The notes beneath the pieces are model-generated. The model made no database searches, was not told the DNA's origin, and was given only the letters and a program-made list of their open reading frames with translations. DNA of 64,000 nucleotides from Leucoraja ocellata (taxonomy: Eukaryota): assembly GCA_036785375.1 (NCBI GenBank), contig JAWMAR010000140.1:2232001-2296000 (forward strand). The letters run 5' to 3'. Below are positions 8,800-35,140 of this stretch, in pieces. Made by a program: the position numbers and the translations under genes. Each line of letters begins with the position of its first letter. Position 1 is the first letter of the stretch.

Positions 8800-11290
8800 A
8801 ATGGCAGGACATTCCCTAACTGAGAACAAAGAATATGGAATCTGCCTCAATGTTCTTATTGAGTAGAACTCTGAACTAGAGAATGTCACAGCTGCAATCA
8901 AAGAGGACATATGGAGGGTTCCAACATTCAGGCAATACAGACTGAGCTCAAAAATAAGATAAGTGCAATCACTGATGAGATTATACTACAGGCTTCACAA
9001 CAACCTGCGGGTGATAGAGGAGCAGATATGTTGACAGGTTAAGGAAAGATGTAAAAGCAAGAGGGTTGTCATAGTGAATGATTTTAACTTCCCCACTATT
9101 GACTGGACTTCCTCAGCGAAGAGGCTTGGATAGGGTAAGATTTGTTAGATGCCTCTAAGGCGGCCTCTTGAAACAGTATGAGGATGGTCCAAGTATACGA
9201 GTGGCCATACTGGACCTTGTATTGGGAAACAAGCTTGGTCAGGTAACTGTGTAGGTAGGAACTGTAGATGCCGGTTTAAAACGAAGATAGGCACAAAATG
9301 CTGGAGTGGGACAGGTGGGGTGGGGAGAAGGAATGGGTGATGTTTCGGGTCGGGACCCTTCTTCAGACATGAGGTAACTGTCTTTTCAGTGGGAGAACAT
9401 TTTAGGAACAGTGATCACGACTGCTTAGAGACTTTCAGATGGTTGTGAATAAGAAGCAAATTATAAAAAGAAAACACATGAAAGTTGAAACCAGTCAGGT
9501 CCTTTAAGGAATATAACAAAAGCAGGAAAGAATTCAAGCAGGAAATTAGGAGGGCCAATATGGGCCATGAAATATCTTCAGCAAGAGAATCCCAAAACAT
9601 TTAATACAGACATTAAAAAGGTAACGAGGGAAAGGGTAGGACAATCAGGATAAAGGAGGGAAATTAGACTTGGGAGTCAGGGGATGTACGCAAATTACTA
9701 AACAAGTACTTTGCATCAGTATTCACCACAGAGAAGGACATGGGGGATAGTGACATCTGCGTGGGTTATAGTTATGTCAGGATATTTTGAGATCAAGAAG
9801 GAGGTGGCACTGAGCTCTAGCAGTAAGAGCAATAAGGTGGATAATTCCCCAAGGCTTGAGTTATCCATCCCAAGTTAATGAACTGAGATTGCTGAAGTCT
9901 TGACACAGATCATTGTATCCTCCCTTGCCATAGGCAAAGTCCTAGATGACTGGAGAGTAGCCAATGTTGTTCCTTTGTTTAAGGAGAGAAATAGGGATGA
10001 TACAGGAAATTAAGGTTTTATGAGCCTCACATCATTGTTTTGGACGCTACTGGAGAGGATGATTAGCGATTGGATTCACGTTTGGAAGAGAATGGGCTAA
10101 TTAGGGGCATTCAGCATGCTTTGTGTGGGGCAAGTCATGTCTTACAAATTTGATTTTGAGTTTCTTGAGGAGGTGAAGAAGGCGACTGGTGGGGGAAGAG
10201 TAGTGGACGCTGTCTACATGGTCTATCGTAAAGCATCTATAGGTTGATCCAGAAGATTAAGATGCCAGGGATCCATGGTGACTTGTGATATGGATTCAGA
10301 ACTGGCTTACCCATGGAAGACTGAGGGTTGAAGAGGAAGGGCGTTCTTCTGGCTAGAGTTCTTGCCTGTGGTGTTTTACAGGGATCTGTGCTATGATAGA
10401 AAAATGACTTGGACAAAAATAGACGAGTTGGTTAGTAAGTTTGCAGACAACACTAAATTTGGTGGAGTTGTGGACAGTGAAGAAGGCTGTCAAAAGACAC
10501 ATGGGATATGGATCAGAGACGGTCGGAGAAATGGCAGATAAAGTTTAATGAAGACAAGTGTGAGGTGTTGCACTTTGGAAGGTCAACTGTAAGGGAAAAG
10601 TTTGTAGTTATTGGCAGGAGTCTTGACAGTATTGATGTACAGAGGAGGCTTATGGGGGGCTTATGTCCATGGCAACACAAGTTCAATGGTTTAATGGTTC
10701 AATCATGCTTTACATTGATGGAGTGGTGAGGGAAACCTTTAGTGAGCTTGCCTTCAGCGTTTGAGGCCTTGAGTACGAGATTCAGAAAGACACGTTGCAA
10801 CTTCATAACATTTTGCTGAGGCCACATTTGGAGTATCGTGTCCAGTTCTGGTCATCCTATTTTAAGAAGGATGTGGAGGCTTTGGAGAGGATGTACGTGA
10901 AGTTTACTAGGCCACTGGTATTAGCTATTAGGCCAGGATGGACAAACTTGGATTGTTATCTCTGGAGCATCAGAGGCTGAGGAGCGACCTGATAGAAGTC
11001 TATAAAACCTACGATAGGTAGACGGTCTGGATTTCTTCCCCGGGGTGAAAATTTCAGAGCCAGAAGGCATAGTTTTAAAGTCAGAGGGGTGAAGTTTAAA
11101 GGAAATGTGCTTGGCAAGATCTTTGTTTCCCAAAGAATATCGTGGGTACCTGGAATGCGCTTGCAGAGGCGGTGGTGGAAGCAGGCAGTTAGGATTATTT
11201 AAATTTGGCATATGTTCAGCATAGACATGGTGGGCCGAAACGCCCATTCCTACGGCGTCCTTTCCAATGCAACTCTGTTCTATGTTCTTC
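8800..11290 (+). mobile_element. Long decayed CR1 LINE ORF2 (endonuclease-RT pseudogene)
   Basis: Remnants of GDFNFP.IDW (9075-9105), DWRVANVVPLFK (9945-9985), KFADNTK (10437-10456), WQIKFNEDKCEVLHFG, RPHLEYRVQFWS; many stops and frameshifts. Confidence 0.88.
9251..9371. mobile_element. Short Penelope-derived insertion inside CR1, 10-bp TSD
   Basis: AGGTAACTGT at 9241-9250 and 9372-9381; contains a minus-strand hammerhead-like core. Confidence 0.8.
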
Positions 11291-11361
11291 CTGGTAATTC
11301 AGTAAATAAATACACAATCCCATAGGATACTATGCCATTCAACAAAGAACAGTTCTCAACA

Positions 11362-12740
11362 AATGTGCAGGAAGGAACTGCAGATGCTAGCAAGGGAAAG
11401 TACCTGGGGATGGGGTGGTTTGGGTGGGAAGGGACGAATTGACCAGGGAGTTACGGAGGGAACGGTCTCTGCGGAAAGCAGAAAGGGAAGGAGATGGGAA
11501 GATGTGGCCAGTGGTGTAATCCCGTTGGAGGTGGCAAAATGTTGTAGGATTATATGGGGGTATTCAAAAATGCTGGAGAAACTCAGCGGGTGAGGCAGCA
11601 TCTATGGACCAAAGGAAATGGGCAACGTTTCTGGTCGAGACCCTTCTTCAGACTTAGATAGGATTATATGCTGTATGCGGTGGCTGATGGGGTGGAAGAG
11701 GACAAGGGGGACTCTGACCTTGTTACGAGTGGGAGGATGGGGAATAAGACCGTTCCCTCTATTACTACCTCGTCAATTCGTCCCTTCCCACCCAAACCAC
11801 CCCCTCCCCAGGTACTTTCCCTTGCAACCGCAGGAAATGCTACACTTGTCGCTTTACCTCCCCCCTCGTGACCTAAGCAGTCATTCCAGGTGAGGCAGAG
11901 GTTCACCTGCACCTCCTCCAACCCCATCTACTGCATCCGCTGTTCAAGGTGTCAACTTCTCTACATCGGCAAGACCCGGTGATTGCAGGCTCGGCGATCA
12001 CTGCACCCAACGCCTCCGCTCAGTTAGTACTAACCAACCTGATCTCCCGGTTGCTCAGCACTTCAACTCTCCCTTCCATTCCGAATCTGACCTTTCTGTC
12101 CTGGGCCTCCTCCATGGCCAGAGTGAGGCCCAGCACAAATTGGAGGAACAGCACCTCATATTTCGCTAGGTAGTTTATACCCCTGCGGTATGAACATTGA
12201 CTTTTCTAATTTTACATAGCCCTTGCTTTCTCCCCCCTTCCCCTCCCCTTCCCCTCCCCCTCCCCTTTCCAGCTCTCCCACAAGCCTACTGTCTCCGCCT
12301 CTTCCTTTCTTTTTCCCGCCTCCCCCCCCCCACATCAGTCTGAAGAAGGGATTCGACCCGAAACGTCACCTATTCCTTCTCTCCATAGATGCTGTCTCAC
12401 CCGCTGAGTTTCTCCAGCATTATTTGTCTACCTTCGATTTTTCCAGCATCTGCAGTTCTTTCTTAAACAGGACACAACAGGATTACTTTGAAGGTGGTGC
12501 AACTTGGGTGGGGGAGGGATGGAGAGAGAGAGGATGCAAGAGTTACTTGAAGCTAGAGAAATCAATATTCAAATCACGGCTGTAAGCTGCCCAGGCAAAA
12601 TATGAGTTGCTGTTCCTCCAATTTGCAATTGGCCTCACTCTGACAATGGAGGAGGCCCAGGTCACAAAGGCCTGTGTGGGAATGGGAAGGGGAATTAAAT
12701 GGTTTGGTAATCGGGAGATCAGGTAGGTAGACCAGGCAAA
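11362..12740. mobile_element. Rearranged Penelope-like element cluster (GIY-YIG fragments in both orientations plus terminal repeats)
   Basis: 11750-12220 is similar to the GIY-YIG region at 34390-34830; 11391-11552, 11657-11745 and 12480-12740 are reverse-oriented pieces; terminal repeats at 11362-11388, 11565-11653 and 12336-12468. Confidence 0.85.
12337..12370 (+). ncRNA. Minimal type I hammerhead ribozyme motif (Penelope-associated)
   Basis: gt-CUGAAGA-a-GGG(auucga)CCC-GAAA-cg-UC-ac: all core nucleotides present; palindromic ACGU helix III. Confidence 0.65.
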
Positions 12741-13049
12741 CCCAACACATGTCAAAATAGTTCACAGTCATCACGGGGACAATATTATTCATTATAATGG
12801 ATCCAACACCCACGGACCAATAATGCAGCAGAATAATGCAAAGTTTCCACTCCTGCTGCTTTCTAACATTCTCATTTTATAATGACACAGGAGGCTATTC
12901 AGCCCACCAGGTGAGTAGCATCTCGCAAGGGAGCAGTCCCATTAGTCTCTCTCCCCCTCCTTATTTTCCCTGTACCAATGCAACTTATTCAATCTCATAC
13001 TGTATGTGGCCATCAGTTCCATTTTAACTTTTTGGCCACAAACCTACAT

Positions 13050-13240
13050 AAGCAGATAACTTAACAGTCGTCAATTAATTTACCAGTGGCTTTGTGAATG
13101 TGGAGGAAACCGGAGCACCCAGAGGAATCCATGTGGTCACAGAGAAAATCTGCAAACGTCCTGCAGACAACACCAAGATCAGGAAGAGACCCACATCCCT
13201 GAAACTGTGAGGAAGCAGAGCTAACTGTTTTGTCACCATA
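13050..13240 (-). mobile_element. Old V-SINE
   Basis: GTGGAGGAAACCGGAGCACCCAGAGGAATCCA is the reverse complement of the V-SINE central domain. Confidence 0.75.
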
Positions 13241-13254
13241 CAGCTCCTGCTCAA

Positions 13255-13517
13255 CAATGAACTCGTAATGGTCAACTACGAGTAAAAAGTAACCATTTTT
13301 TTCCATCAGAAGTATTTTTTTACTCGTGGACATTTTTTACAGGGGTGAAAAAACGTCACGAGTTTACCAGATTTCCTGAGTACCTACCGTTAGCATTACG
13401 AGCCGCTACGAGACATCCACGAACTCCTACGGACCCGCTACGGACATTCTCCGAGTTCGAATCAGGGGAAAACTCGGGAGAACTTGAGAATTACCTCGTA
13501 CAGTGGGACAGGGGGCT
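13255..13517. mobile_element. Partial PIF/Harbinger-like MITE (one end only)
   Basis: CpG-rich block ending AGTGGGACAGGGGGCT+TTA, like the terminus of the MITE at 29689; left TIR not found. Confidence 0.6.
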
Positions 13518-14000
13518 TTACCATTATCACGTTCCAGGCCGTCAATATCCTTAGGGATGTCATTGACTATAAACTCAACTGAATCAGCCACATAAATATA
13601 GCTACAAGAGCAGATCAGAGGCTGAGTAGTCTGCATCAAATAACTCACCTCCCCACATCTCAAAGATCTTCCACCATCTACAAGGCATAAATCAGAGTTG
13701 CCTGGATGACTGCAACTCCAAAAACACTCAAAAAGCTGAGCACCATCATGAACAAAGCACGATTGGCATCCCATTCAACACCATGGCCTTCATTCCCTCC
13801 AGCACCCACACGACAGCTCCATCTATAAAATCCACTGCTGTTGCTCACATAAACGATTCCACCAGCACCTCACAAGACCGTGACCCTGAACATAACACTG
13901 GGGCTGCAGACAATGTCACAACGTACAGATTCCTCTCCAAGGCAACACATGATCCTGCTTTGGAAATAAATTGTTATTGCTTCCTCAATGGACCTTGGGT
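13518..14000 (+). mobile_element. Old non-LTR LINE 3' fragment (CR1/L2 group)
   Basis: Remnant frame NILRDVID.KLN..SHIN..TRA.QRL..TIYKA..KKLSTI; a related reverse-oriented piece lies at ~15640-15860. Confidence 0.6.
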
Positions 14001-15894
14001 CAGTTGGGTTTATAGACAAGTCCTCATTCTACAGCATTTTGGAATATCTGAAGGACTGCAGGAAGTCAAGAAGGGGCCTTACTTCCAACTTCTCATGCAA
14101 AGTTAATTTAGAATTGTTAATCTTGCCAGGGTCATTCAGATACCAAAATATTATTGAACTGGGTTTCACTGTTATACCCCCACAAAGATCGCTCAGCCTT
14201 CCAATGCGCATCGTCTAGGGCTGTATATGAAGAAAGGCCAAGGGTGTGGAACACAAGAGTTTCAGCATGTGCCTGTCATCAGGGGAGACAACTGAGAAGA
14301 GAGAAAGTCTTTACAATCAAACTTAATTAACCACAAGTTCTCACCTTTCCCTTCAGAACAGCCTCATAGCATTTTTGCATTGAAAGAAAACTCACACAAA
14401 CTTAAAATAATGTTTAGATCTGAACTTAAGTGAAGCAGGTGCCTGTGGAAATATTGTTCCTGGTAACAGAGGCAAATGTTTCAGGAGGTTTGGATTAAAA
14501 CTCTCCCATGGTGCAGAGCACACTGGTGACATTGTAACTCTAGCCAGACAACAAGGTTTTCTGGTTAATCTGCTGCCAGAAAACATTTTACAGCAGCTCT
14601 TCAGTACAGCTGCCTGCTCTGCATCATGACATACAACAGAGCACACATCATTTATGGCTTCTTCACTAGAACAGAAGACAGATAAATACCCCTCACTGCA
14701 GTATGTTTTGGGTCGAATTCCCACTGTAGCCCTATATGGCCACTGGGCATCATGTGCACCGACTTCATATAAGGTGACACAGTAAGCAACACACAGGTCT
14801 GAATAGGAAGAGGCTATTCACTCCAATCAAATACCCACTGAGAATGTCACAGGTCATTCTCATCTATCCCAGGTTTGGCACTGCACCAGCACCACTTATG
14901 CCAGTTGAATTAGCAATTAGCGTTCAGTGTGCTGAGGCACACTTCATAAATCACCATGTATCAGATGCCCTCAACTTTTCAGCTTGGTTTAAATGATATA
15001 TTCCCTTCCTCCCCCTCACCCCACCATCTGATGAGAACTGGTCACCTTGCCAGAATCTAATGCCTTGGCCTTCACAAGGTCAAGGTCAAACAACCTCCTT
15101 GAACTGGTCCAGGCCCATTCTTAGTCACGCATGTGCCCAAAAATATGAAAAATGGTGGAATACATCTCTTTCAATTCTGAAAGCATCACAGGTATATTGT
15201 TTTGTGCTGTATATATGATTCATATCTTTTTTCGAAGTTTATCAAGTGAAATGTTTATGTTACGCAGACAATGTTTGTTTAGTATCGGAGGTCAAATATG
15301 ACTGGTCACGTGTGTGACCTCACACAAACGCGTTCTTTTCATAAAACTCAGTTTTGTCTGACAAAATCTATGAAGTTTAAAAAAGCTAGAATGTTCATAT
15401 CTTTAGCAGGCGTGCATTATAGTTCTGTAGGTAGGAAGATAGCAATGAACAAGATTAATCTCGTACAAGAATCTTTTAATGTATCACTCTATGCGATGCC
15501 GTCTGGTCACGTGTGTGACATGTTGGTTCACTTTCCAAAGAATGGCCCTCCAGCAAATGACTCCCATAGACAAGTAGTTCCAGGGTGGAACATTGAGGAA
15601 TGGTGATAGATTTCCAAAGAGTGTGTGCGCTGTCAGGTTTGGAGGAGAAATTCCAAATTTGACATTGTACAATCTTGGAAATATATCGCTGTTCCTGACA
15701 GCAGCGTAACAGCGTGCCTTTTGCCCTCATTTGTGTAAGTGCAGAGGTTGTAGGTTTGGGAAGAGAGTTGTAGAGAATTTAGTGAATTGAGATCACAGCC
15801 ATGGGTGAAGGGAATGTGGATGGGATGCCGATCGATTGTGCTATTTTATCCAGAGTCACTGGCAGAAAGCGTTCTGGACCACCGATTAAGTAAA

Positions 15895-16170: not shown

Positions 16171-17106
16171 AATCACAGATGATCAAAAATTTGTTATAGG
16201 AACTCAGCAGGCCCGGCAGCATCTGTGAAGGAAAATAGGCAGATGATGTTTCACGTTGGGATATTTCTTCAAATATTTTCTTCTTGCTGGTAGACAACAA
16301 ATTGAGAGGAAAGCTTCATGCACTATCAGACTCTAAATAAGTAATAGTTTAAAGAAAAAAATATATAATCTCTTAACCCAAGCACAACATAACCAATAAT
16401 GTGCATCATTGGTAGCATCAAATAGTTTGATACAGATACCAACTAAATTCATGTTATTAACCAACAGACAGGTTCAGCTTCAACTGACTATTGCACTAAA
16501 AAGAAGCTGGGCACATCGGACTCAAAGGAACCAAATAAATCTGTCAATCATTGTGAAACATAAAATAACTAGATCCAGAATCATGAAAATGTTTTGTGTT
16601 CATCCAAAGGGCCACCAGTACTAGCCCTCCCCAGGTTCGAACCCCCGATTTACAGACACCCACATATACAAAAGAGCATTTGGGAGACGGAAGAGTTGGG
16701 TGGGATGCTGGCTGCTGCATCTTCTGCCAGGAGGAAACGGAGCACTTCCATCTATCTTCTCGCCCCATTCCCTAACCCCACTGCCGAGACATAGCAATGT
16801 GGGGCTAGATTGAGCTGAGCTCAGCTAGTAGAACTGAGCTGTCTCACTCATTTACTCACCGAGTCAGGCCAGCAGCCTCTCTCCATGCACCAACTTGCGC
16901 TCCCACACACTGTTCTTGTTCATTTCCATTTTACGCACAGTTCGAGTTACAAACAGTTCTCAGGAACAAAACCCTGTTGTAACCTGGGTACTTCCTCTGC
17001 CAGTATTTACCTCCCTAATAGATTTCACTGTCTCTGGAAATGGGGGTTGTTGCAGATTATAAAAAACTGATCTACTGTTATTCATCTACAATAAACAAAT
17101 CATAAT

Positions 17107-17236
17107 GTGTAGGAAGGAACTGCAGATGCTGGTTTATACGAAGGATAGACACAAAGTGCTGGTGTTACTCAGCGGGTCAGGCAGCATCTTTGGAGAAAAA
17201 GGATGGGTGACATTTCGGGTCGGAACCCTTCTTCAG
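17107..17236. mobile_element. Short Penelope-derived insertion, imperfect 13-bp TSD
   Basis: AACAAATCATAAT (17094-17106) and AACAAATGATTAT (17237-17249); minus-strand hammerhead-like core at 17205-17236. Confidence 0.8.
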
Positions 17237-17811
17237 AACAAATGATTATCATTGGATTATTCAACAAATTATTGAAATGATTCCTTCATGTCAATTTCAG
17301 AGTTTCATTCTATCCATATTACTATGCAATGCAAAGATGCATATATCTCTTTTTTATTCTGGACAGAATTATATCTAATCTTCATATTTTGATTCTTTTC
17401 CAGAGAAATTATTTCATTTAATATTACTATGATAAGGACGTTGTATTTCTTCCGCTTCTTGAAATACAACATTTTCTTTTCACTGTCGCCAGCCTAGTTT
17501 AAATAATGTGTTTCCCAAAAATATATCAGAACAAAACTATCCCTTGGTCTTCTTAAACGGGTTGATATAATGGGTGCACAGGCTACACATTTTCAATTTC
17601 TCCATATTTTCAGTCTGCTAAGGTTTGCACAAGTTTTCAAGCTCCACGACTCCTCCCACCTGTCAGCTAAATGTACATAAAAATGGACATAATGGCCATT
17701 TGATCATTCAAAAGTCAATACGTTATTCTGAAAATGACCAAATGAAAGATGCAGCGCTGCCTCAATGGATAAATGCACCACCAACCTAAGTTCTTGTACT
17801 TATGTATATAA

Positions 17812-18121
17812 GGGCAGCACGGTGGCGCAGCAGTAGTGTTGCTGCCTTACAGCGAATGTAGCGCCGGAGACCCGGGTTCGATCCTGACTACGGGTGCTGT
17901 CGGTACGGAGTTTGTACGTTCTCCCCGAGACCTGCGTGGGTTTTCTCCGAGATCTTCGGTTTCCTCCCACACTCCAAAGACGTACAGGTTTGTAGGTTAA
18001 TTGGCTTGGAAAATGTAAAAAATGTCCCTGGTGGGTATAGGATATTGTTAGTGTGCGGGGATCGCTGGTCGGTACGTACCGGTGGGCCGAAGGGCCTGTT
18101 TCCGCGCTGTATCTCTAAACT
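17812..18121 (+). mobile_element. Full-length tRNA-derived V-SINE (HE1-like)
   Basis: A box GGTGGCGCAGCAG, B box GGTTCGATCC, central GTGGGTTTTCTCC..CGGTTTCCTCCCACA, CR1-like 3' end GGGCCGAAGGGCCTGTTTCC. Confidence 0.92.
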
Positions 18122-18898
18122 ATATGACAATAAACCCAACTTAACTCTAAGCCATTAACATCACGAACCCTGGTAGCAATCAAGCCAACAGTGATGAAAT
18201 GGCATCAATGTTTCTGAGGTGCAGTTCTCCCTGTGGACTAATGGTCAACTGACACATGCTACCTCAAACCCTGCACTCACAGCAACGTTGGGTCAAAGGG
18301 CTACAGGACAGATAGCTCCTTTACCATAATCGGCAGCTTAAATGTGAAACACAATGGAGACAGTTATACACATCTTAACCAAGGCCTCGACACAATGAGA
18401 TGTGGAACTCGCCAAAGTCACACACTTCCAAACCCACAAACCCATGGTGTCATGAGCCAGAATTTCTATGTATTGAATCACAGCTGAAGAGTAAATGTAC
18501 ACCTCTTAATAACAATCATAGCTGATTTAGAATGGTCTGGATTTAAAACTAGATTCTAAATAAATTGGTTAAACAGTTTAATCAATTACAAATTAAATAA
18601 GGGATCTGTCATCGTGCCAGCATGTATTGGCACAGTACAAGGCTGTGCACACACTGGACCCAGTCATTCAGATCCTGTTCCAGAGGAAACAGCTGATGTA
18701 AAGCTAACAAAATAAATATTGAAGTGGATTTCAGCCCTTTAGCTGGTCAATTAACATACACTCTGGCCAAAAATTGCCATCATGTAACCAGGGATAGTTT
18801 AGATTCTGGGATTAATAAAGAGGAAGTCACTTTTTAAATAATGATTGAGATGCACAACAGGTTAAATTTTACTAATATAGGCTTCATCCTTGCAACGT

Positions 18899-19213
18899 GG
18901 GCGGCACGGTGGCGCAGCAGCAGAGTTGCTGCCGAACAGGGCCAGAGACCCGGGTTTGATCCCGACTACGGGTCCTGTCTATACGGAGTTTGTACGTTCT
19001 CTCCGTGACTGAGTGGGTTTTCTCCGAGATCTTCGGTTTCCCCCCACGCTCTAGAGATGTACAGGTTTGTAGGTTCATTGGCTTGGAATAAATGTAAATT
19101 ATCCCTAGTGTGTGTAGGATAGTGTTAGTGTGCGGGGGTCGCTGGTCGGTGCGGACTCGGTGGGCTGAAGGGCCAGTTTCCGTGCTGGATCTCTAAACTA
19201 AACTAAACTAAAA
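18899..19213 (+). mobile_element. Full-length V-SINE (HE1-like)
   Basis: Same structure as the 17812 copy, with a (CTAAA)n tail. Confidence 0.92.
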
Positions 19214-19561
19214 CATTCCATCACTAGAGTTGCAATTTCACGGAAACTCCACAGTCTACTATGTGTGTTCTAACTACTCTTTAAAAATATATCTTGATGG
19301 ACAATCGGTAGAGCATTAATCTCAGGAAAAAATGCTCTCTCTCTCTGCCAGCATTAATGTCAGTAATATCAGTAATAGCTCATGGTCTAATACTCAGAAA
19401 AACTTTGTTAAAGGTAAGGTTTCTAATTTTAACAGAGTTACAGAATTCTTGTAGACAGGATGAATCCTATAACCAGAAGATTTTGTTCCAAGGAACCACA
19501 TTTCTCCTTACTCCACCCGCCTGCCAACCACCACTGCCCCCCATCACGTGTATTTACCTGT

Positions 19562-19840
19562 CATAGACACAGAATGCTGGAGTAACTCAGCGGGACAGGC
19601 AGGATCTCTGGAGAGAAAGAATGGGTGACGTTTCGGTTCAAGACCCTTCTTCAGACTATCTTTTGCCAGGTTTTGTCCCAACACCACCTCTCTTTTTCAC
19701 CTTTCTCACCCATTAGTGGTCTGAAGAAGGCTCCCGACTCGAGATGTCATTTGTCCACTCCCTCTGCAGGCACTGCCTGACCAGCTGAGTTCCTCCAGCA
19801 CTTTTTATTCTGCTCATAGTTCCAGCAACTGCAGTTTCTC
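19562..19840. mobile_element. Fold-back Penelope-derived element (two inverted terminal repeats)
   Basis: 19562-19657 and 19718-19810 are degenerate reverse complements of each other. Confidence 0.8.
19623..19657 (-). ncRNA. Minimal hammerhead ribozyme motif, sense to BCL11A pre-mRNA
   Basis: Minus strand agu-CUGAAGA-a-GGgucuugaaCC-GAAA-cg-UC-accc; core intact, helix II has one mismatch. Confidence 0.55.
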
Positions 19841-19854
19841 TGGTTAATCAAGTT

Positions 19855-20517: not shown

Positions 20518-20838
20518 AGTTTAGTTTAGAGATACAGCATGGAAACAGGCCCGTCAGCCCACTGAGTCTGCACCGACCAGCGATCCTCACACATTAACGC
20601 CATCCTACACACATTAGGATTTACACTTTATTGACAATTTACACTTATATCAAGCCAATTAACCTACAAACCTGTACATCTTTGGAATGTGGAAAGAAAA
20701 CTAAAATCTCGGAGGAAACCCGCGCGGTCGCAGGGAGAACGGACAAACTCCGTACAGACAGCACCCGTAGTCAGAATCGAACCCGGGTCTCCTGCCGCTG
20801 TAAGGCAGCAACTTTACCGCTGCGCCACCGTGCTGCCC
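20518..20838 (-). mobile_element. Full-length V-SINE (HE1-like)
   Basis: Reverse complement of the 17812/18899 copies; an extra tail fragment lies at 20345-20402. Confidence 0.92.
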
Positions 20839-22529
20839 TTCGAGGGTATCTGAGATCAACTCTTCCCACTTTGTGCATCACGTCCACTTTTCTTTCAATC
20901 ACCCGTCCCAATATAATTAATTCTTATCTGAAGGATTTCATTTCAAATCAGATGAAACATAAATTTGATAAACATATGAGTATTATAAACAGCCAATTAT
21001 ATTAACAACATATTAAATTGTAAATGCTTTGGGGAAATCCCTTTTTTCTCCTCTTTTGCACTTCGATATGTATCATGCATTCTTCACAGACAATTAGCTT
21101 CGGTAACTTGTCCTTTGGTTGTTTTCCCTCAGTCTCTAATGCATGATTATTTGATAAAAGAATGAAACAAAAACGCAAAACACAATAACTCATTACAACT
21201 TTCGGTCTATCTAGCAATTTAATCCAGGGGGAGTAGAGTAGGACTTCTGCTAGTTTTTTTTTTTTAAACCTTAATATTTCACAGAATAACCAAAAACAGA
21301 AAAGAGAAAACGACAGTGGCTATTGGCTGCAATGCCAACAATTTCCTATTGCTTTGAAAAATAAAATCTTTAATTATTAAATTCTTGAAAGAAGCCCAAA
21401 AACTCAAAACACATGTTAAAATTGCTTAATTCAATATTTTTAATTGAAAAATCCAATTGTTGAAACAGAACAGAAAGTTTTACAATTAGATTACACAAAA
21501 TGTTCCGCTATCTATCTTAATTTTCTGTTAGCCATGCATTGAGTTTTGTCCTCCAAATGGTGTTGCTCCTTACATTTTTATGCCAATTCACTTTCTTCTG
21601 ATGCTGCATAGACGCCAAGTGTCTCTGGATATTTTCTTGTCTCAAACCAATGTCATCACTCATGAGACTGTAACCCCTTTCCAAGTGAACTGCTTTCCAC
21701 AGGCACGCACACAGAGCCTCACAAACGATGGATGTTTATTCAATCACCGCAACAAAACTTCCTTGCAATGAGATTAGAATCTCTCACTGGTGTATGGTTA
21801 TCACCCAGCCACCCACATTTCTGCAACAGTGACTGGCCAGCACTGTAACAACAGGCAGATAAAAATTAAAATGTATTAACTTATTGAAGACCTAGCATTC
21901 ATTCTGAGGTCTGACTGAGACAGTTATAGCAGCTACTTTTGAGAAGCCAAGTGACAAGCCATTTTGTTCTTTTGTTGTGGAGAAGTGTGACATCACATAC
22001 CATTATACAAATAACAGAATTGGACCAGAAGCAACACTGTGTTCATCAATGAGGCCAAAATTAAAAGCTGCAAAGAAGCTTTTTTTTAATTTTTACTTGC
22101 CTTATTAAACAGTAACATGGAATCAGCACACACTACACATTCAGATATAGGCAAACCTATTGAGACACAAATCAACCAAGTTACAAATACCTGGCTAGTC
22201 GCTCCCTCCAACAAGTAATCGCCATTGTCAAATTCAGCAGAAAAAAGCAGCAATTGGATTTGGATTAAAAGGAAAGACAACAATTGGCCTACAAGATGAA
22301 GACAGGAGGGTATGGAACTGAGGGTGGTGTAACTGGGATGCCAGGTATCACTGTTGAGCCCTCTGGAGATGTTGTGGGCCTATCAATGAAACGTCAAAGA
22401 AGGAGGGTGCCCACCTGATGATCCCAATGACGTACCTACCCTACCTTCCACCACTCCAATCCCACTGCCAATATCAAGAGTGCCGATTTACTACAGGGAT
22501 TGAAACATCAAGTCCAATTTGCTCTACTT

Positions 22530-23775
22530 ATTGTTTGAGGATGTAACAAGTAGAATGGATAAGGGAGAGCCAGTGGATATGATATATCTGGACTTTCAAA
22601 AAGCCTTTGACAAGATCCCTCACAAGAGATTAGTGTGCAAAATTAGAGCACATAGTATTGGGAGTATAGTATTGACATGGATAGAGAACTGGTTGACAGA
22701 CAGGAACTAAAGAATTGGAATTAACTGGTCCTTTTCAGAAAGGCAGGCAGTGACTAGTGGGGTGCCGCAAGGCTCAGTGTTGGGACCCCAGTTGTTTGCA
22801 ATATATATTAACGATTGTGACGAGGGAATTAAATGTAACCTCTCTAAGTTTGCGGACGACACAAAGCTGGGTGGCCGTGTGAGCTGTGAGGGGGATGCTA
22901 TGAGGTTGCGGGGTGACTTGGATAAGTTGGGTGAGTGGGCAAAAGCATGGCAGATGCAGTATAATGTGGATAAATGTGAGGTTATCCACTTTGGTGGCAA
23001 CAACAGGAAGGCAGATTATTATCTGGTGTCAGATTAAGAGAAGGGGAGGTGTAACGAGACCTGGGTGTGCTTGTACGTCAGTCACTGAACGTAAGCATGC
23101 AGGTACAGCAGGCAGTGACGAAAGCCAATGGCATGTTGGCCTTCATTGCGAGAGGATTTGAGTTTAGGAGCAAGGAGTTCCTACTGCAGTTGTACAGGGC
23201 CCTGGTGAGACTGCACCTGGAATATTGTGTGCAATTTTGGTCTCCTAATTTGAGGAAGGACATTCGTGCTATTGAGGGAGTGCAGCGTAGGGTCATCAGG
23301 TTAATTCCCGGGATGACGGGACTGACGGATGATGAAAGAATGGGTCGACTGAGCTTGTATTCACTGGAATTTAGGATGAGAGGGTATCTTATAGAAAAAT
23401 ATAAACTTCTTAGAAGATTGTGGACAGGGTTGATGCTTGAAAAATGTTTCCGATGTTGGGGGAGTCCAGAACCGGGGGTCACAGTTTAAGAATAAGGGGT
23501 AGGCCATTTAGGACTGAGATGAGGACAAACCTTTTCACCCAGAGAATTGTGAATCTGTGGAATTCTCTGCCACAGAAGGCAGTGGAGGCCAATTCACTGG
23601 ATGTTTTCAAGAGAGAATTAGATTTAGCTCTTCGGGTTAACGGAATCGAGGGATATGGGAAGAAAGACGGAACGGGGTACTGATTTTGGATGATCAGCAA
23701 TTATCATATTGAATGGCGATGCAGGCTCGAAGGGCCGAATGGCCTACTCCTGCACCTATTTTCTGTTTCTATGTT
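22530..23775 (+). mobile_element. CR1/HER1 LINE, 5'-truncated RT region, pseudogenised
   Basis: YLDFQKAFDKIPH, TSGVPQGSVLGPQLF, KFADDTKLGG, HLEYCVQFWSP, intact 3' terminus; frameshifts between the segments. Confidence 0.95.
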
Positions 23776-24120
23776 TAATTACAAGTTGTTTGCTTCTCCC
23801 TCAAAACAATTAATTTTATCATCTGCAAATGCATGAGTTTTTCTTAGTGTTTAAAAGTTCACATAACATTTCCTACATTACTATTTTATAAATTCTCCCC
23901 TCTACTAGGCAGTCTCCCACCACTCCAATTTTGTGGGTTCTCAGGTGGCCAATGGTCTGATGTGGCCAATGTCTCCATTTTTAGTAGCAGCTGGGACATT
24001 CATTTGCAAGAGTGAAGGACTTTATAACTATGGTCTTTACTGTACAGTTTTCGTGGCAACTTTAAGAAGCCTCGAGGCATCCCTCTTCAACATAGGTTGT
24101 CACAACAGTGATCCTTGGTG

Positions 24121-24180
24121 GTTACACAAAAAAGCTGGAGAAACTCAGCGGGTGCAGCAGCATCTATGGAGCTTTGAAGA
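24121..24180. mobile_element. 60-bp Penelope-derived insertion with perfect 14-bp TSD
   Basis: AGTGATCCTTGGTG at 24107-24120 and 24181-24194. Confidence 0.8.
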
Positions 24181-24600: not shown

Positions 24601-25166
24601 CACACCTGGAGTATTGCGTGCAGTTTCGGTCTCCAAATCTGAGGAAGGACATTATTGCCATAGAGGGAGTGCAGAGACGGTTCACCAGACTGATTCCTGG
24701 GATGTCAGGACTGTCTTATGAAGAAAGACTGGATAGACTTGGTTTATACTCTCTAGAATTTAGGAGATTGAGAGGGGATCTTATAGAAACTTACAAAATT
24801 CTTAAGGGGTTGGACAGGCTAGATGCAGGAAGATTGTTCCCGATGTTAGGGAAGTCCAGGACAAGGGGTCACAGCTTAAGGATAATGGGGAAATCCTTTA
24901 AAACCGAGATGAGGAGAACTTTTTTCACACAGAGAGTGGTGAATCTCTGGAACTCTCTGCCACAGAGGGTAGTTGAGGCCAGTTCATTGGCTATATTTAA
25001 GAGGGAGTTAGATGTGGCCCTTGTGGCCAAGGGAATCAGAGGGTATGGAGAGAAGGCAGGTACGGGATACTGAGTTGGATGATCAGCCATGATCATATTG
25101 AATGGCGGTGCAGGCTCGAAGGGCCGAATGGCCTACTCCTGCACCTAATTTCTATGTTTCTATGTT
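24601..25166 (+). mobile_element. Young CR1/HER1 3' fragment
   Basis: Open frame 24618-25073; nearly identical to the copies at 7447-7960 and 33332-33748; (TTTCTATG)n tail. Confidence 0.95.
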
Positions 25167-25224
25167 TACCTCTCCCTAACTCTCACAGCTCTGTATTGTT
25201 GGTACATGGCAGATAAAGAGGAGC

Positions 25225-25480: not shown

Positions 25481-25652
25481 AAAGTCATGGAGGCCTACAG
25501 CACATAAATGGCCCCTTCGATCCACTGTTTTGCCCATCTATATGAATATCATTTGCCTGCATAGTTTGTCTTCTCTGATGATTATTCCCACAGAGATGTG
25601 ACATTGAAGAGGAGCAAGGATCGGATCGATCAGTTGGACCAATGCCAAAGAA

Positions 25653-25886
25653 CCATAGGAAGGAACTACAGATGCTGGTTTAAATCGAAGATAGACACAA
25701 AATACTGGAGTAACTCAGCAGGACAGGCAGCATCTCTGGAGAGAAAGAAAGGGTGACATTTCGGGTCTAGACCCTTCTTCGGACTTCTTCTGAAGAAAGG
25801 TCTCAACCCAAAACGTCACGCATTCCTTCTGCCCAGAGATGCTGCCTGTCCAGCTGAGCTGCCCCAGCATTTTGTGTCTATCATAA
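25653..25886. mobile_element. Fold-back Penelope-derived element with 12-bp TSD
   Basis: Inverted arms 25690-25785 and 25788-25882; AATGCCAAAGAA at 25641-25652 and 25887-25898. Confidence 0.85.
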
Positions 25887-25956
25887 AATGCCAAAGAATA
25901 TGGCCTTGCTTTTGCTGCAATTAGGTTTGGTCTGAAGGCGAGTCTGAAATGGCATC

Positions 25957-26222: not shown

Positions 26223-26239
26223 TATCCTGCTGCCTATCC

Positions 26240-26381
26240 TGCTGCCTGTCCTACTGAGTTACTCCAGCATTTTGTGTCTATCTTCGATTTAAACCAGCAT
26301 CTGTAGTTCCTTCCTATGCTTCTTTGGCATTGGTACAACTGATCGATCCTTGCTCCTCTTCAATATCACATCTCTGTGGGA
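26240..26381. repeat. Inverted duplicate of 25586-25732
   Basis: Reverse complement matches across ~142 bp with about 5 substitutions and one 5-bp indel, including ~65 bp outside the Penelope element. Confidence 0.9.
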
Positions 26382-26382
26382 T

Positions 26383-26700
26383 GGGGTGGCAGAGTAGAAC
26401 AGTGGTAGAGTTGCTGTCTTACAGTGCCAGAGAACCCGGGTTCAATACTGACTACTGGTGCTGTCAGCACGGAGTTTGTACGTTCTCCCCGTGACCTGCG
26501 TGGGTCTTCTCCGGGATCTCTCTGGTTTCCTCCGACATTCCAAAGACATACTGGTTTATAAGTTAAATGGCTTGGTAAAGTTGTAAATTGTCCCTGGGGT
26601 GTATAGGATAGCGTAAGTGTGCGGAAATCACTGGTCGGCATTTACTCAGTGTGCCGGAGGGCCTGTTTCTGTGCTGTGTCTCTAAACTAAACTAAAACTA
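26383..26700 (+). mobile_element. Full-length V-SINE (HE1-like)
   Basis: Same structure as the 17812 copy; (CTAAA)n tail. Confidence 0.9.
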
Positions 26701-27059
26701 AGATGCCAAATCTAGGGACTGACTGGTCATTCATATACAGTATATAGAGCTTTGAGTGCCTCTGCTCCCTGAAATAGGCACTGCTTAGCAGAATGAGGAA
26801 TAACCAACTCATCACCATGACTGGGCTGTAGTTTCAAACTGACCAGCCATGTTCCCTGTCATGATCCATGCGGTGAGATAAAGCATCCAGAAAAAAAGCT
26901 CAAGAGAAAAGTAATCCATCTATAATGAAAGCGACAATAATAACATTAGCCAGAACCTTTCTGATCCTGATTTTATCGAACAATATTCACCACGGCCTTT
27001 AATGGTGAGATATTTATTCCATTCCTGGCATTGCAGGTCTGTAACCAAGTGCCTGGGTT

Positions 27060-28893: not shown

Positions 28894-28894
28894 A

Positions 28895-29689: not shown

Positions 29690-31424
29690 TAAGTGTGTAT
29701 GAGCAAAATTGGCCGATATTTCTGTTGAAATATAAACCTTGTCAGCAAAAGGTATACCATCTCTATTACTGTGAGTGACAACATATGAATATATTTGCAA
29801 ATGTTATACTTTGGAAAAAAAATTATGAACACTTTTCCTTACGAAAAAAGTTGACTGCCCATAATGATAAAGGTCAATCTGATGATGCTCATTTGTGACC
29901 CAGAAATCAAGTATCTACAGTGGCCTCACTTTGACCGACAGAATGAACAGCACTCTCAATCCCTCAGAAACTAAAGCTGCAAACAACTTATCGTTGATTT
30001 GACTAAAACGCACAGTGAAATGTTTGAGCTTGTAGGAAGCCAAAAAGAGAAGATTCTCACCAGTTCTATAACCATTCAAAAACCACTTTATTTCTATAAA
30101 AGTCACAATTACTGCCCAGCAAATTAGAAGAACTTGACATAAATCATAACAGCACATTCCCACGATTGTCCAAACAATTTATCAACCAATTATGATCTGT
30201 AGTTCCACAGGTTTCTTGATTACCTCCAAATCACGCAACTGAAGTTGAGGCTTTAGGTGCCCAAATCCCGAATTAACACCCTGGCCTTCTCTGCTCTCCA
30301 CCTCACTCTCTTCTGAGCTACCTTTTTGACTAATCTCACCTCCTTCCCTCATATCTCGTTATATACCTTGGCAACATTTTTTTTTGTTTGTTTCGCGTGT
30401 TCCTGCGGACTTTTGCTGCCTATTTTCCAAGTGCCGGTAGTAATAGCATTTCTTGCAGTAACGTGTTTGCCTGTGATAGACAATTTGCAATGATACAATG
30501 TCAACAATGAAATAAAACTTCCACATTCAGACCGAGTCACAAATGTTGTCCATAACACTAAAGGACTCCCAGCGGCTCTTCGAATAATGCTATGTTATCT
30601 TTTACAACCAGCTGAACACAATCTAGGCCTTGGCTCGGCACTCTGTTTAAAAGTCAACAACTCGGGCAACTCAGCCCTCCCTCATTTCTGCAGTCAATCG
30701 CCTTCTTCAATAATTTATTCAGGCTGAAACCACAACTTCTTACTCAGTTTGTGTGGTGCCACAGACCAAACCAGGCTGACACAGATTAAAAATGGAGGGA
30801 GCAGGAAAGAAAAAAAAATCCTGGTGTTACCTCCCACATAAAAAGAATGAATAACTGGAATTTTGTGTATATAAGAGTTAGCGTACAGACTCAACATCAT
30901 TCGCCATCTGTGCAGCAGATTGTACATTTTCTATAAGGATTGAAAGCAGATAGTGCACATAAGGTTTATAGGTTGTGACAAACTGGATTTCTGGCTGCTT
31001 TCCTGACAGGAACTAGTCCTATAAAAAATAGTGCTATCAAATCCCCATTCTCCAAGAGCAAATAGGTTCACCGTACATTGGTTGTGGTTGTGGTTGGGGG
31101 TTGGCAGGGAGTGTTAAATGTTGCTACTTTCATGATAGTTAGTGCACTAAGCACTCTGCATCAAGGGGACGTCACACTTTCCAAGCAGCAAACACTGAGG
31201 AAGTATTAACGGGTTTGATCAAGCCTTGACAAATAATGCAAAGTAGAATAGAGCCCTGTTCTGTGGAATAGGTCAAGACCAACCACAGGCTTGCACCTAA
31301 CCACTCAAGAGTTGTCAGGAATGGCACGTGACAACAATATGCTTCTCTCCCAATTACTTTGCACTGAGATGCATGATATCGCATCTCTGCAGTGAATGGC
31401 GTTCAAATAAGATTCTGGAGTTCC

Positions 31425-31695
31425 AGAACCAGCTGTTATCAGTCAACTGAATCATCCTACCACAACCAGAGAGCAGTGCTAAACTACTATCTACCTCTTT
31501 GGTGACCCTCGGACTATCCTCGATTGGACTTTGCTGGCTTTACCTTGCACTAAACGTTATTCCCTCATCATGTATCTATACACTGTAAATGGATGGATTG
31601 TAACCATGTATTGTCTTTCTGCTGACTGGCTAGCACGCAACAAAAGCTTTTCACTGTACCTCGCTACACGTGACAATACACTAAACTAAACTGAC
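31425..31695 (+). mobile_element. Rex-like LINE 3' end
   Basis: CCAGCTGTTATCAG (PAVI..LN end), 3'UTR ending TTTCACTGTACCTCG.TACACGTGACAATA + (CTAAA)n. Confidence 0.65.
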
Positions 31696-32189
31696 TGACC
31701 GAGTTTGGCTCTGAATCTGGACAGGCACTCACATCCTGCCAATCCTGTGCGGGATCAATGGAAAACTGATGAAACCAATCTCAATTGTATCTCTGGGAAG
31801 GGGAGAAAGGAGTCACTTTTTCTTTGCTCAAGACCACCTCCTGGTGGAGGATCCCAAGTGCAACATCGCTTAACTTCACAGATCGCACCACATGTGAAAA
31901 CACCATCTCAAGCAAGATACGTTTGTGGAAGGTGCAATGCGAGAGTAATCAAAGCACAAACATTTGATTCACTTAAATTTTAAAATGTAAAGTACTATCA
32001 TCTGTTACTCTCCCCTTCATTTCAGTTGCATTTCAGGCTCCATTTCACTATAAACATGGAAATAACATTATACTTTTTTATAATTATTGGTCCGGTGGAA
32101 GAATCTTAAAAACAATAATTCTTGTCCTAAAATCAAACAGCGATGCATTTTCAGAGGACTAATAAAGCTAGGATATACACATCAAATGG

Positions 32190-33065
32190 TGGGCCCAGGA
32201 AGTATTGAGGAACAAAGGGACCTGGTGTATATATATATGTTCAAGGGTCCCACAAGGCAACAGCACAGCTAGATAAGATGGTTAAGAAGGCAAACCGGTT
32301 ACATTAGCTGAGGCATAGAATATAAGAAGAGCACAAAGGTTCTGGTACAGCCATATAAAACAATACTACAGCTGGAGCACTGAGTGTAGTCTGGCCACCA
32401 TACTATACAAAGAATGTGTAAAAAGGAACTGCAGATGCTGGTTTAAACCGAAGATAAGACACAAAAAGCTGGAGTAACTCAGCGGGAGAGGCAGCTTCCC
32501 TGGAGAGAAGGAATGGGAGACGTTTCAGGGCAAGCATCTTCTTCAGACTGAAGGAGGGTCTCGACCCCAACCCTCACCCATTCCTTCTGGTCTCGCCCCG
32601 AAACGTCACCCATTCCTTCTCTCCAGAGATGCTGCCTGTCCCGCTGAGTTACTCCAGCCTTTTATGTCTATTATAGAAAGAATATATCGCACTGGAAGAG
32701 CTTCAGTAAAGATTCACAGGGGAAGTGGGCTGCAGTGGAGAATTTCAGTTACCTCGACCAGTGTGAGGTCAAAAGGTTTGAGGTAAAAGGCATAGATTTG
32801 AGGTAAGGGGTAGAAGATTCAGAGGGCATTTGTAGGTGGACATTTCCACGCTGAGCGTGGATGAAATTTGGGGCAGACTCTAAGGGGGTGATGGGGACCA
32901 GTACTCTGGTACATTTGACAAGTACTTAGACAAGCACTGGAAATGCCATGCCATAGGAAACTGTGGATCCAGCGCTTGTAAATGGGAAATTAGTACAGAC
33001 GGAGACCTGAAAACTGGCACAGACATGATGGGTCAAAGGATCTGTTTGCATACTGTATAACTATA
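32190..33065 (+). mobile_element. Old CR1 3' part interrupted by a fold-back Penelope-derived element (32415-32670)
   Basis: Decayed EEQRDL..QLEH..VW motifs; the insert has inverted arms and imperfect direct flanks ATACAAAGAATGT / ATAGAAAGAATAT. Confidence 0.75.
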
Positions 33066-33139
33066 ACTAATATCCTCAAAGAAAACATGACTTACTAGTC
33101 TTTATCCTTCCACCCCCTGCAGGTTCATGGGCCTGTCAA

Positions 33140-34000
33140 AAAAATGTCACTGTCATATCTACTTCCACCACTTTCCCTGGCAGAGCGATCCAGACACCTA
33201 CCACTCACTCACTGTGTGAAAAAACTTGCCTTGCAACTCCTGCTTTAAACCTTCCCCTTCTCGCCTTTTCTTTGCTCCCACCTCTGGTATTTGGCATTTC
33301 CTCCCTGAGCGAAAGACTCACTGCCTGCGTTATAGAAACATAGAAACATAGAAATTAGGTGCAGGAGTAGGCCATTCGGCCCTTCGAGCCTGCACCGCCA
33401 TTTAATATGATCATGGCTGATCATCCAACTCAGTATCCCGTACCTGCCTTCTCTCCATACCCTCTGATCCCCTTGGCCACAAGGGCCACATCTAACTCCC
33501 TCTTAAATACAGCCAATGAACCGGCCTCAACTACCCTCTGTGGCAGAGAGTTCCAGAGATTCACCACTCTCTGTGTGAAAAAAGTTCTCCTCATCTCGGT
33601 TTTAAAGGATTTCCCCCTTATCCTTAAGCTGTGACCCCTTGTCCTGGACTTCCCCAACATCGGGAACAATCTTCCTGCATCTAGCCTGTCCAACCCCTTA
33701 AGAATTTTGTAAGTTTCTATAAGATCCCCTCTCAATCTCCTAAATTCTTTTCTGTGCCTCTCATAATTTTATAAACTTCTCGATGGTCGCCCTCCAGAAA
33801 AAAACACCCAGGGTTGTCCGTCCTCTCCTCCAAGCTAATCGTCTCCAATCCAAGCCACGTCCTGGTGATCCTCTTATTGCATCTTCTCCAATGCTTCCAA
33901 ATCCTTCCTTGATTGTGTGTGGCGAGACAAGAACTGCGCTCAACCATAAAGGCATGCCAAGGTTTGGACCAAAATCTTAACATGGATCGCAATGCAACCT
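33140..34000 (-). mobile_element. Old CR1 with a young CR1 copy (33332-33748) nested inside
   Basis: Young part RGDLIETYKILKGLDRLDAGRLFPMLGKSRTRGHSLRIRG... with (CATAGAAA)n on the plus strand; decayed CR1 on both sides. Confidence 0.9.
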
Positions 34001-34044
34001 TTATCCAACACAACAGAAAGAAGCACACATATTTAAGTGAGGCT

Positions 34045-35140
34045 AGACACAAAAAACTGGAGTAACTCAGCGGGACAGGCAGCATCTCTGGAGAGAAGGA
34101 ATGGGTCGAGACCCTTCTTCAGACTGGTTAGGGATAAGGGAAACGAGAGATATAGATGGTGATGTGGAGAGATAAAGAACAATGAATGAAAGATATACAA
34201 AAAAGTAACACGGAAAATCTCCTTGCTCCCCCTCCCCCTAGTCGCAACAGAGACAGAGTCCCCCTAGTCCTTACCTTCCACCCCATCAGCCGTCGCATAC
34301 AACACATAATCCTCCGAAACTTCCGCCACCTCCAACGGGATCTCACCACTAGCCACATTTTCCCATCTCCACCCCTTTCCGCCTTCCGCAGAGACTATTC
34401 CCTCCACAACTCCCTGGTTAACTCATCCCTTCCCACCCAAACCATCCCCTTCCCAGACACCTTCCCCTGCAACACCTGTTCCTATACCTCCTCCCTCGAC
34501 TCTGTCCTGGGACCCCGACAACCCTTTCAGGTTAGGCAGAGGTTCACTTGCACCTCCTCCAACCTCATCTACTGTATCGGTTGTTCAAGATGTGGACTCC
34601 TATACATTGCCGAGGCCAATCGCAGACTGGGCGATCGTTTCACGGAACACCGTCGCTCAGCCAGCGTGAACCAACCTGATCTCCCGGTTGCTGGACACTT
34701 TAATTCTCCTTCCCATTCCTACACAGACCTTTCTGCCCTGGGCCTCCTCCATTGTCAGAGGAACAGCATCTCATATTTCGCTTGGGCAGCTTACAGTCCA
34801 GTGTTAAGAATATTGATTTATCTCGCTTCAGGTAGCCCCGGCATTCCCTCTCTCCCTATCCCTCCCCTACCCAAGTCACACTAGCTTCCCATTTTCACCC
34901 TACAACCAGCCTGTTTCCTTTATCATCGTTACGTTTTTGCATATCTTTCATTCATTGTTCTTTATTTCTCCACATCACCGTCTATATCTCTCGTTTCCCT
35001 TATCCCTAACCAGTCTGAAGAAGGGTCTCGACCCGAAACATCACCCATTCTTTCTCTCCAGAGATGCTGCCTGTCCCACTGAGTTGCTCCAGCTTTTTTT
35101 GTCTATGTTCGGTTTAAACCAGCATCTGCAGTTTCTTCTT
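34045..35140 (+). mobile_element. 5'-truncated Penelope-like element: GIY-YIG endonuclease fragment between inverted pseudo-LTRs, 18-bp TSD
   Basis: ORF 34186-34884 RVPLVLTFHP..FTCTSSNLIYCIGCSRCGLLYIAEANRRLGDRFTEH..VAGHFNS; ~165-bp inverted repeats 34045-34210 and 34928-35105; ACATATTTAAGTGA(G/A)GCT at 34027-34044 and 35141-35158. Confidence 0.92.
35012..35046 (+). ncRNA. Hammerhead ribozyme motif in Penelope 3' terminal repeat
   Basis: agu-CUGAAGA-a-GGGU(cucg)ACCC-GAAA-ca-UC-accc; perfect helix II, helix III palindrome broken by a CpG-type change. Confidence 0.55.

Follow-up and report, generated by a model that had tools for sequence, protein, structure and literature searches.

The hammerhead-bearing repeats in an intron of BCL11A of Leucoraja ocellata are very probably 3'-end pieces of an autonomous, very high-copy Penelope-like element (PLE) of the Neptune/Nematis type, which carries the known minimal type I hammerhead ribozyme. 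The pieces, each a pseudo-long terminal repeat (pLTR) with an optional tail, are likely to be inert passengers of the intron. They were analysed in a 64,000-nucleotide stretch of contig JAWMAR010000140.1 (assembly GCA_036785375.1, positions 2,232,001 to 2,296,000), called the window below, and positions are counted from its first letter. An earlier note on this DNA had listed 12 copies between positions 9251 and 35140, had described them as a non-autonomous, retrozyme-like family of Penelope origin in cartilaginous fish, and had proposed that copies in the gene sense nick the nascent BCL11A transcript.

The parent element was recognized from the DNA upstream of the repeats. Remnants of a GIY-YIG endonuclease frame, overlooked earlier, precede the copies 12340 and 35015 (copies are named by the position of the hammerhead nucleotide C3), and a Pfam search of the endonuclease remnant of the window alone gave no match. 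A genome search with the endonuclease piece returned 127,567 first-look candidates, many with long open frames, and twenty of these genomic loci were retrieved for study, including L031, L032 and L033. In L031, a frame of 1138 codons encodes a reverse transcriptase (RT; RVT_1, E 3.6e-6) and, at the C terminus, a GIY-YIG endonuclease (E 0.0084), and the same repeat begins 110 nt after the frame. In L032, the repeat flanks the frame on both sides as a 503-bp direct repeat, 99.4% alike, and the same holds for L033. The L031 protein has a DKG motif and a CX4CX2C linker (CNRKRCNTC), followed by CSRC and two His residues. A CX2-5CxxC linker before the endonuclease, with CCHH in the endonuclease, is a Neptune/Nematis trait (PMC8557442). 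By its linker and motifs, rather than by a tree, the element would be placed in the Neptune/Nematis type. Among 1030 homologues of the L031 protein, those listed contain PF00078 and often PF01541; the closest named one, from the bamboo shark Chiloscyllium punctatum, is 70% identical, consistent with the earlier placement of the family in cartilaginous fish and, together with the L031 frame, with its Penelope origin. Direct pLTRs from partial tandems, an optional tail, and inverted 5'-truncated copies beside insertions (34032-34209 and 11560-11654 in the window) are all PLE traits found here; the tail and inverted copies of PLEs (PMC8557442), as well as solo pLTRs (PMC3846280), have been described before.

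The youngest lineage (L031-L050; cluster 6 of 14) lies 0.8% from its own consensus and has many intact frames, so that, judged from these sequences, it is likely to be still active. It carries a GUU cleavage triplet, which is listed as active (PMC3138052), and a UUCG loop, and its GUUUCGG can pair with CCGAAAC, burying the core. The proline-rich N-terminal part of the frame contains a 36-bp tandem repeat (L032:3302-4005), the copy number of which varies between elements. A literature search for the family in cartilaginous fish found no description, and the supplements of PMC4209133 and of a preprint (bioRxiv 10.64898/2026.07.22.740005) may list such motifs.

The hammerhead is clearest at the family level. 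In a sample of sixty 10-kb stretches, taken at round positions on large contigs and thus not strictly random, the hammerhead descriptor gave 50 matches in 600 kb, 48 of them in this family, versus 0-4 per shuffle in ten approximate dinucleotide shuffles of the sampled genome. When a pairing palindrome and a helix I of at least 2 bp were also demanded, 23 matches (22 from this family) were left versus none in the shuffles. An Rfam search at E<=10 reported no hammerhead family. The family has the core nucleotides C3 U4 G5 A6 G8 A9, G12 A13 A14 A15.1 and U16.1 H17, and its consensus agrees with what had been read from the window, a minimal type I hammerhead that has an additional A behind A9 and a palindromic ACGU; the view that a helix I of 2 bp makes monomer activity doubtful was likewise right. 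The motif quoted for the window equals the family consensus but has no exact match among 13 aligned window copies, and individual window copies mostly fail the hammerhead core test. Among 184 aligned copies, the extra A is present in 173, G10.1 in 164 and C11.1 in 119 (CpG decay), and CG is the majority at 15.2-16.2.

In the same 184 copies, the ten non-CpG core positions keep their majority base at 0.95, compared to 0.85 in the flank (48 positions, median 0.91; p 3e-4). Moreover, seven of the eight cluster consensuses retain all 11 core bases, and the eighth deletes the 3' half. Clusters differ from one another in loop II, at positions 11.4 and 1.1, where U-A became U-G, and at position 17, where C became U; the changes in helices are one-sided changes from U-A to U-G only (10.4-11.4 and 2.1-1.1), with no compensatory double change. 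The comparison of core with flank that the earlier note had asked for leans its way, as none of the 11 core positions differs between the seven cluster consensuses that keep the motif, and this sequence pattern fits selection on the active lineage. It has to be read with the caveats that several downstream blocks are equally invariant, that the alignment was anchored on the core, and that promoter elements may overlap the hammerhead core (PMC2377424).

The family is very abundant. The sample contained 324 repeat matches in 599,600 bases, that is 540 per Mb, which extrapolates to about 1.9 million repeat fragments genome-wide. Fifteen of the matches belong to one tandem array at L110:771-1877, made of a 66-bp piece of the pLTR (from the 3' half of the hammerhead onward); this appears as a minisatellite born from the element, with no whole ribozyme per unit. 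The array was removed for counts of ends, leaving 309 matches, and a peak of 5' ends at model position 24, which came from this array alone, was dropped. With a family of this size, the 16 matches that a profile built from natural copies found in the interval 9251-35140 represent the expected density (about 14). The whole intron of 126 kb holds 43 matches, 22 in the sense and 21 in the antisense orientation. A copy about every 2 kb, with dozens in every long intron, has no significance as a finding about BCL11A.

The window repeats are a further case of a ribozyme already described for PLEs, the minimal type I hammerhead, and their testable by-product is the sharpness of the copy ends. With the hammerheads of metazoan PLEs, especially the Drosophila virilis-type variant (PMC4209133), they share the pLTR position, the extra base between 9 and 10.1, the G10.1-C11.1 pair, the 2-nt palindromic insert of helix III, the 2-bp helix I, a predominance of scattered single motifs left by truncated elements, and opposite-strand pairs 100-700 bp apart. 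They differ in a helix II of 4 bp with a tetraloop instead of 6-8 bp, in A at N7, in the GUU triplet of the youngest lineage, and in number, with about 125,000 intact motifs (extrapolated) against 4,000-9,000 in coelacanth and Xenopus; the accessible part of PMC4209133 names no cartilaginous fish among the motif bearers. The endonuclease-containing (EN+) PLEs of the Neptune/Nematis type (PMC8557442) share the single frame with RT before GIY-YIG, the DKG motif, the CX4CX2C linker, partial tandem pLTRs, the inverted truncated copy and a tail of 30-40 nt. Unlike them, the element described here has a long proline-rich N-terminal part with the 36-bp repeat, and its short units outnumber copies bearing an open reading frame (ORF) about 4 to 1 among ribozyme-complete copies. 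With the Poseidon element PAc of Anolis carolinensis (PMC11167929), the family shares two classes of 3' ends split by the tail, a ribozyme close upstream, and no sign of cleaved RNA as a template; PAc, in contrast, is of the Poseidon type, has its start codon in helix II, and its mechanism was shown in vitro, while ours is inferred.

Non-LTR retrozymes (bioRxiv 10.64898/2026.07.22.740005) also have a type I hammerhead, pLTR-related sequence and dispersed monomers, but they are non-coding and arranged head-to-tail, every unit of the array carrying a ribozyme, whereas the copies here are single or head-to-head and some are joined to the endonuclease. No head-to-tail array with whole hammerheads occurs among the 43 matches of the intron, and the sole partial duplication (32545-32682) lacks a whole core. 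Nor does this look like a separate non-coding family, as 30 of 153 sampled copies continue into the untranslated region (UTR) or the endonuclease. With autonomous elements that share the same end and no head-to-tail array in the interval, the description of the family as non-autonomous and retrozyme-like is not supported.

The copy ends point to how the short units may have arisen. Among the 153 sampled copies that reach the 5' edge of the ribozyme there are 71 solo and 52 head-to-head copies; these 123 stop within about 9 nt of this edge, and the others extend into the UTR (16) or the endonuclease (14). A stricter check reassigned 3 of 64 solo copies to the attached ones. About 80% of the ribozyme-reaching copies start at, or 1-3 nt inside, a TCA(+1)GT just before CUGA. 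All five letters of TCAGT are present in 17 of 23 attached copies, and 34 of 42 young unattached copies match at most three. Background 5' stops amount to 1.5% per nt at positions 6-30 and 0.6% at positions 34-60, and the cleavage site (positions 31-33) shows no excess, with 5 of 246 copies stopping there (0.7% per nt). At the 3' side, the ends fall into two groups separated by about 30 nt, with 122 of 309 matches ending at model positions 88-108 and 129 at position 123 or beyond. In 79% of 109 short copies, the distance to the nearest attached copy equals that to the nearest other short copy to within 0.02 (medians 0.133 and 0.136), and this equal closeness to ORF- or UTR-attached copies argues against a separate non-autonomous family, contrary to what had been supposed.

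These ends would fit a mechanism whose chance of being right as a whole we put at about even. The element would be transcribed from an internal promoter, a type of promoter described for PLEs (PMC2377424), with the start at the A of TCAGT, and the ribozyme would form the first 31 nt of its RNA. An Inr-like TCACT occurs in a rotifer pLTR (PMC3846280). The element protein would nick DNA and start reverse transcription internally at tail sites, as was shown in vitro for the anole PAc (PMC11167929). Priming at the 3' tail would yield ordinary truncated copies, such as 12340 and 35015, and priming at the tail near the 5' end of the RNA would lead to run-off after 100-135 nt and hence to the short units; a second, inverted copy would give the head-to-head pairs. 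The inserted copies would then decay neutrally, CpG first. TCAGT is initiator-like by its resemblance to the initiator consensus; a G at -4 that could derive from a cap shows no enrichment (0.16). Since the short units retain the whole ribozyme, the RNA templates were likely uncleaved.

We therefore suggest, tentatively and with somewhat less assurance than the mechanism itself, that the more than one million short copies may be run-off cDNAs of the first 100-135 nt, that they may map the start at TCA+1GT together with both priming sites, and that the inserted RNA was uncut by its own hammerhead, the function of which would lie in some other step or in a fold switched by protein. The role of the PLE hammerhead was called unclear (PMC8557442), and in vitro it is dispensable for insertion (PMC11167929); the lack of excess copies at the cleavage site bears on this unsettled role. 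If the suggestion is true, a long-open question becomes testable from one genome, and the sharp ends of very many copies make a modest resource on where PLE RNA and its reverse transcription start.

RNA reads came from three raw-read runs of poly-A and single-cell libraries, the source species of which may differ from this one. The mean depth on the 135-nt unit reached 2,400-7,400 per direction, compared to less than about 80, and mostly less than 20, on the element body, and 75-94% of the reads on the unit run on into unlike sequence. This pattern fits passenger transcription.

Two other accounts of the short units and of their 5' edge deserve weight. The units could be a self-propagating class resembling short interspersed elements (SINEs), with their own promoter and priming sites, copied in trans by the protein of the full element. 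About 80% of ribozyme-complete copies are indeed short units, the oldest clusters have no ORF-attached members, and in a rotifer the pLTR alone can drive integration in trans (PMC3846280), beyond which a literature search for solo pLTRs as SINE-like units found nothing. Yet attached copies are as near to the short ones as other short copies are, each younger large cluster mixes attached and short copies, and in the poly-A run the reads map to both strands and 94% of them extend into unlike sequence, as expected of passengers of host RNA. A SINE-like class is therefore unlikely. The 5' edge could also be something other than a transcription start: a 3' splice site, a halt of the RT at the C-rich UTR, or an effect of self-priming on antisense RNA. 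Attached copies have a pyrimidine tract and CAG before UCUGA, and the letters of solo copies at -4 to -2 (C 0.38, A 0.61, G 0.65) also fit the consensus of exon ends. An intron of Drosophila virilis Penelope ends at the 5' end of helix I (PMC4209133), and antisense self-priming was proposed for head-to-head junctions (PMC3846280). However, the upstream letters of solo copies contain no common exon, the head-to-head pairs, in which the upstream DNA is the inverted element, keep A at 0.69 and G at 0.76, and a forward splice into the site was seen in none of the 15 strongest RNA joints, which were listed ahead of 95 weaker ones. We regard such an origin of the edge as less probable than a transcription start.

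The gene that harbours the repeats is a member of the BCL11 family on the minus strand, so that minus-strand repeats are in pre-mRNA sense. Its best matches are BCL11A, exon 1 starting at 57981 and the ZnF0 exon lying at about 52986-53330 (approximate ends, minus strand), upstream of the repeat-bearing intron; the ZnF0 exon matches Pfam PF25491 and is identical to the BCL11A chains 9bv0 and 9b4p. BCL11A chains are also the best matches of the large zinc-finger exon, located 73.6 kb to the left of the window, although for ZnF2-3 the scores of BCL11A and BCL11B are nearly equal (118.8 vs 117 bits), and the paralogue call comes from best matches, not from a tree. The exon positions and best matches agree with the location in a BCL11A intron given earlier.

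The proposal that two gene-sense copies pair via ACGU and nick nascent BCL11A RNA appears highly improbable. In its favour, low-rate dimer cleavage was reported for this class of motif (PMC4209133), copy 19654 keeps its core and ACGU, copy 17236, 2.4 kb away, keeps its core, and the related anole ribozyme gains activity with the element's protein, which it requires (PMC11167929). On the other hand, all eight sense copies of the interval deviate from the motif. The whole intron has four sense passes of the descriptor, two with a pairing palindrome, and these are 17236 and a copy 35 kb away inside a head-to-head hairpin. In copy 19654 helix II contains a mismatch, and the copy is predicted to pair with 19719-19839, leaving its core unpaired with a probability of 0.10; its active dimer is at +7.3 kcal/mol versus -15.7 kcal/mol for the best co-fold. 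Among Xenopus dimers, eight of nine were uncleaved in vitro (bioRxiv 10.64898/2026.07.22.740005). In predicted folds of the pre-mRNA, copies 11651, 19654, 25782 and 32546 are paired to an inverted partner transcribed just earlier, and the probability of helix II in context is 0.00-0.01 for five of six folded sense copies and 0.17 for 9366. Folded alone, five of seven units favour a hairpin in which GAAGAAGGG is paired to pyrimidines downstream. For the three motifs tried, the best co-fold is more stable than the active dimer by 12-23 kcal/mol. Neither strand is preferred in the intron (22 sense versus 21 antisense, p=1.0), and its intact copies with a pairing palindrome, 2 sense versus 3 antisense, are too few to show or exclude sense depletion. 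Nicking of BCL11A RNA is thus unsupported, because the sense copies are damaged, predicted to be sequestered in duplexes, and unbiased by strand. A longer helix I, formed with upstream sequence or by splicing from the region of the stop codon, was rejected by inspection because the sequences on both sides are rich in C and subfamilies do not conserve the candidate donor.

Several points weigh against the account of inert 3'-end pieces made by run-off from a PLE start site. Both Pfam matches of the L031 frame lie under the curated cut-offs (27.3 vs 29.6 and 16.8 vs 22.6 bits). The core is more conserved than the flank, so that the ribozyme is probably of use to the active element at one stage or another. 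In the two oldest clusters (26 and 40 copies) no member is attached to endonuclease sequence, and they leave room for an independent spread of short units. The start site was deduced from copy ends alone, the same edge, which comes after a C-rich tract, resembles a 3' splice site in its pyrimidine tract and CAG|T, and no pile-up of RNA starts or ends is listed, in libraries unsuited to reveal starts or 5'-OH ends. Finally, the fold predictions ignore tertiary contacts, proteins and co-transcriptional kinetics.

Individually, the 12 copies listed earlier are all present on the strands given, with C3 at 12340, 19721, 25790, 32548 and 35015 on the plus strand and at 9366, 11651, 17236, 19654, 25782, 32546 and 34122 on the minus strand, and the cleavage coordinates 12367 (+) and 19627 (-) were correct. 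Four of the 16 profile matches are additional: copy 16271 (-) and the fragments 24173 (-), 26240 (+) and 32589 (+). The copies that had been taken as good (9366, 11651, 12340, 17236, 19654 and 35015) are all damaged. Two of them are solo pLTR units with tails on the minus strand: 9244-9368 (C3 9366), in which CG changed to CA and the palindrome was lost, and 17104-17239 (C3 17236), with an intact core, UG for CG, and a helix I of 1 bp. At 11746-12469 (+) lies a 5'-truncated PLE with the Cys linker, a broken GIY-YIG remnant, a C-rich 3' UTR, TCAGT, the hammerhead (C3 12340; core intact, helix II of 3 bp) and a tail. It is preceded by the 5' part of a truncated PLE insertion, inverted and rearranged (11361-11743, -) and composed of a tail piece, ORF pieces and the pLTR 11560-11654 (-; C3 11651), which lost C11.1 and has a GUU triplet; a separate minus-strand fragment with the end of the endonuclease frame and UTR, its hammerhead gone, follows at 12490-12728. 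The other 5'-truncated PLE (34226-35147, +) comprises the end of the RT thumb, a GIY-YIG remnant, the 3' UTR, CCAGT, the hammerhead (C3 35015; CA for CG, palindrome lost) and a tail. Beside it, an inverted piece of pLTR and UTR (34032-34209, -) has a 12-nt deletion that takes out GAAACGUC. This deletion between two ACCC words, which destroys the ribozyme, is recurrent (34102-34126 in the window; 9 of 269 aligned copies).

The pLTR unit 19553-19657 (-; C3 19654) has an intact core and ACGU, a G-A mismatch in helix II, and, 62 nt away, an inverted partner, the old degenerate unit 19719-19839 (+). Another old degenerate pLTR copy, missing from the earlier list, lies at 16174-16271 (-), and a young pLTR fragment without hammerhead at 24121-24173 (-), its 53 nt identical to the full-length element L032. 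The head-to-head pair 25656-25887 has U4 changed in its minus part (25656-25785) and G12 changed in its plus part (25789-25887), and a pLTR 3' half with tail at 26240-26316 (+) lies within a 110-nt inverted repeat with 25623-25732. In the head-to-head group 32413-32682, helix II is broken in the minus part (32413-32550), and the partial duplication formed by 32545-32588 and 32589-32682 (both +) has no whole core in either piece. Head-to-head pairs such as 25656-25887 and 32413-32682, a very common arrangement (52 of 153 sampled copies), fold into hairpins of 100 bp in whatever transcript contains them and, as with inverted Alu pairs, might be targeted by RNA editing or small-RNA pathways. Rfam matches to MIR1858 and MIR2118 at 32455-32672 correspond to the head-to-head hairpin, not to microRNAs.

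The BCL11A locus is present twice on the contig, the second time as an inverted copy of 97-99% identity at about 2,317,800-2,476,000. In window coordinates, this copy extends from 85,843 to at least 244,000 and corresponds to positions 70,442 down to -90,890; it begins beside a run of 200 N letters. All three checked exons are present in it, and some insertions occur on one side only; the 11 of 11 checked insertions of the hammerhead-bearing repeat are common to both copies. Most likely it is a second haplotype joined into the scaffold, and a true recent inverted duplication is possible. Fragments of long interspersed elements (LINEs), CR1/L2-like by their peptide motifs, occur at 7402-8079, 9385-11270, 23055-23781, 24603-25168 and 33332-33748. 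The pieces 7450-7959, 24651-25167 and 33336-33748 are 96-99% alike, and the mirror copy lacks the last of them. Another dispersed repeat, about 300 bp long, SINE-like and 75-85% alike between copies, is found at 43-229, 17810-18122, 18899-19211, 20518-20840, 26384-26701 and 41246-41495.

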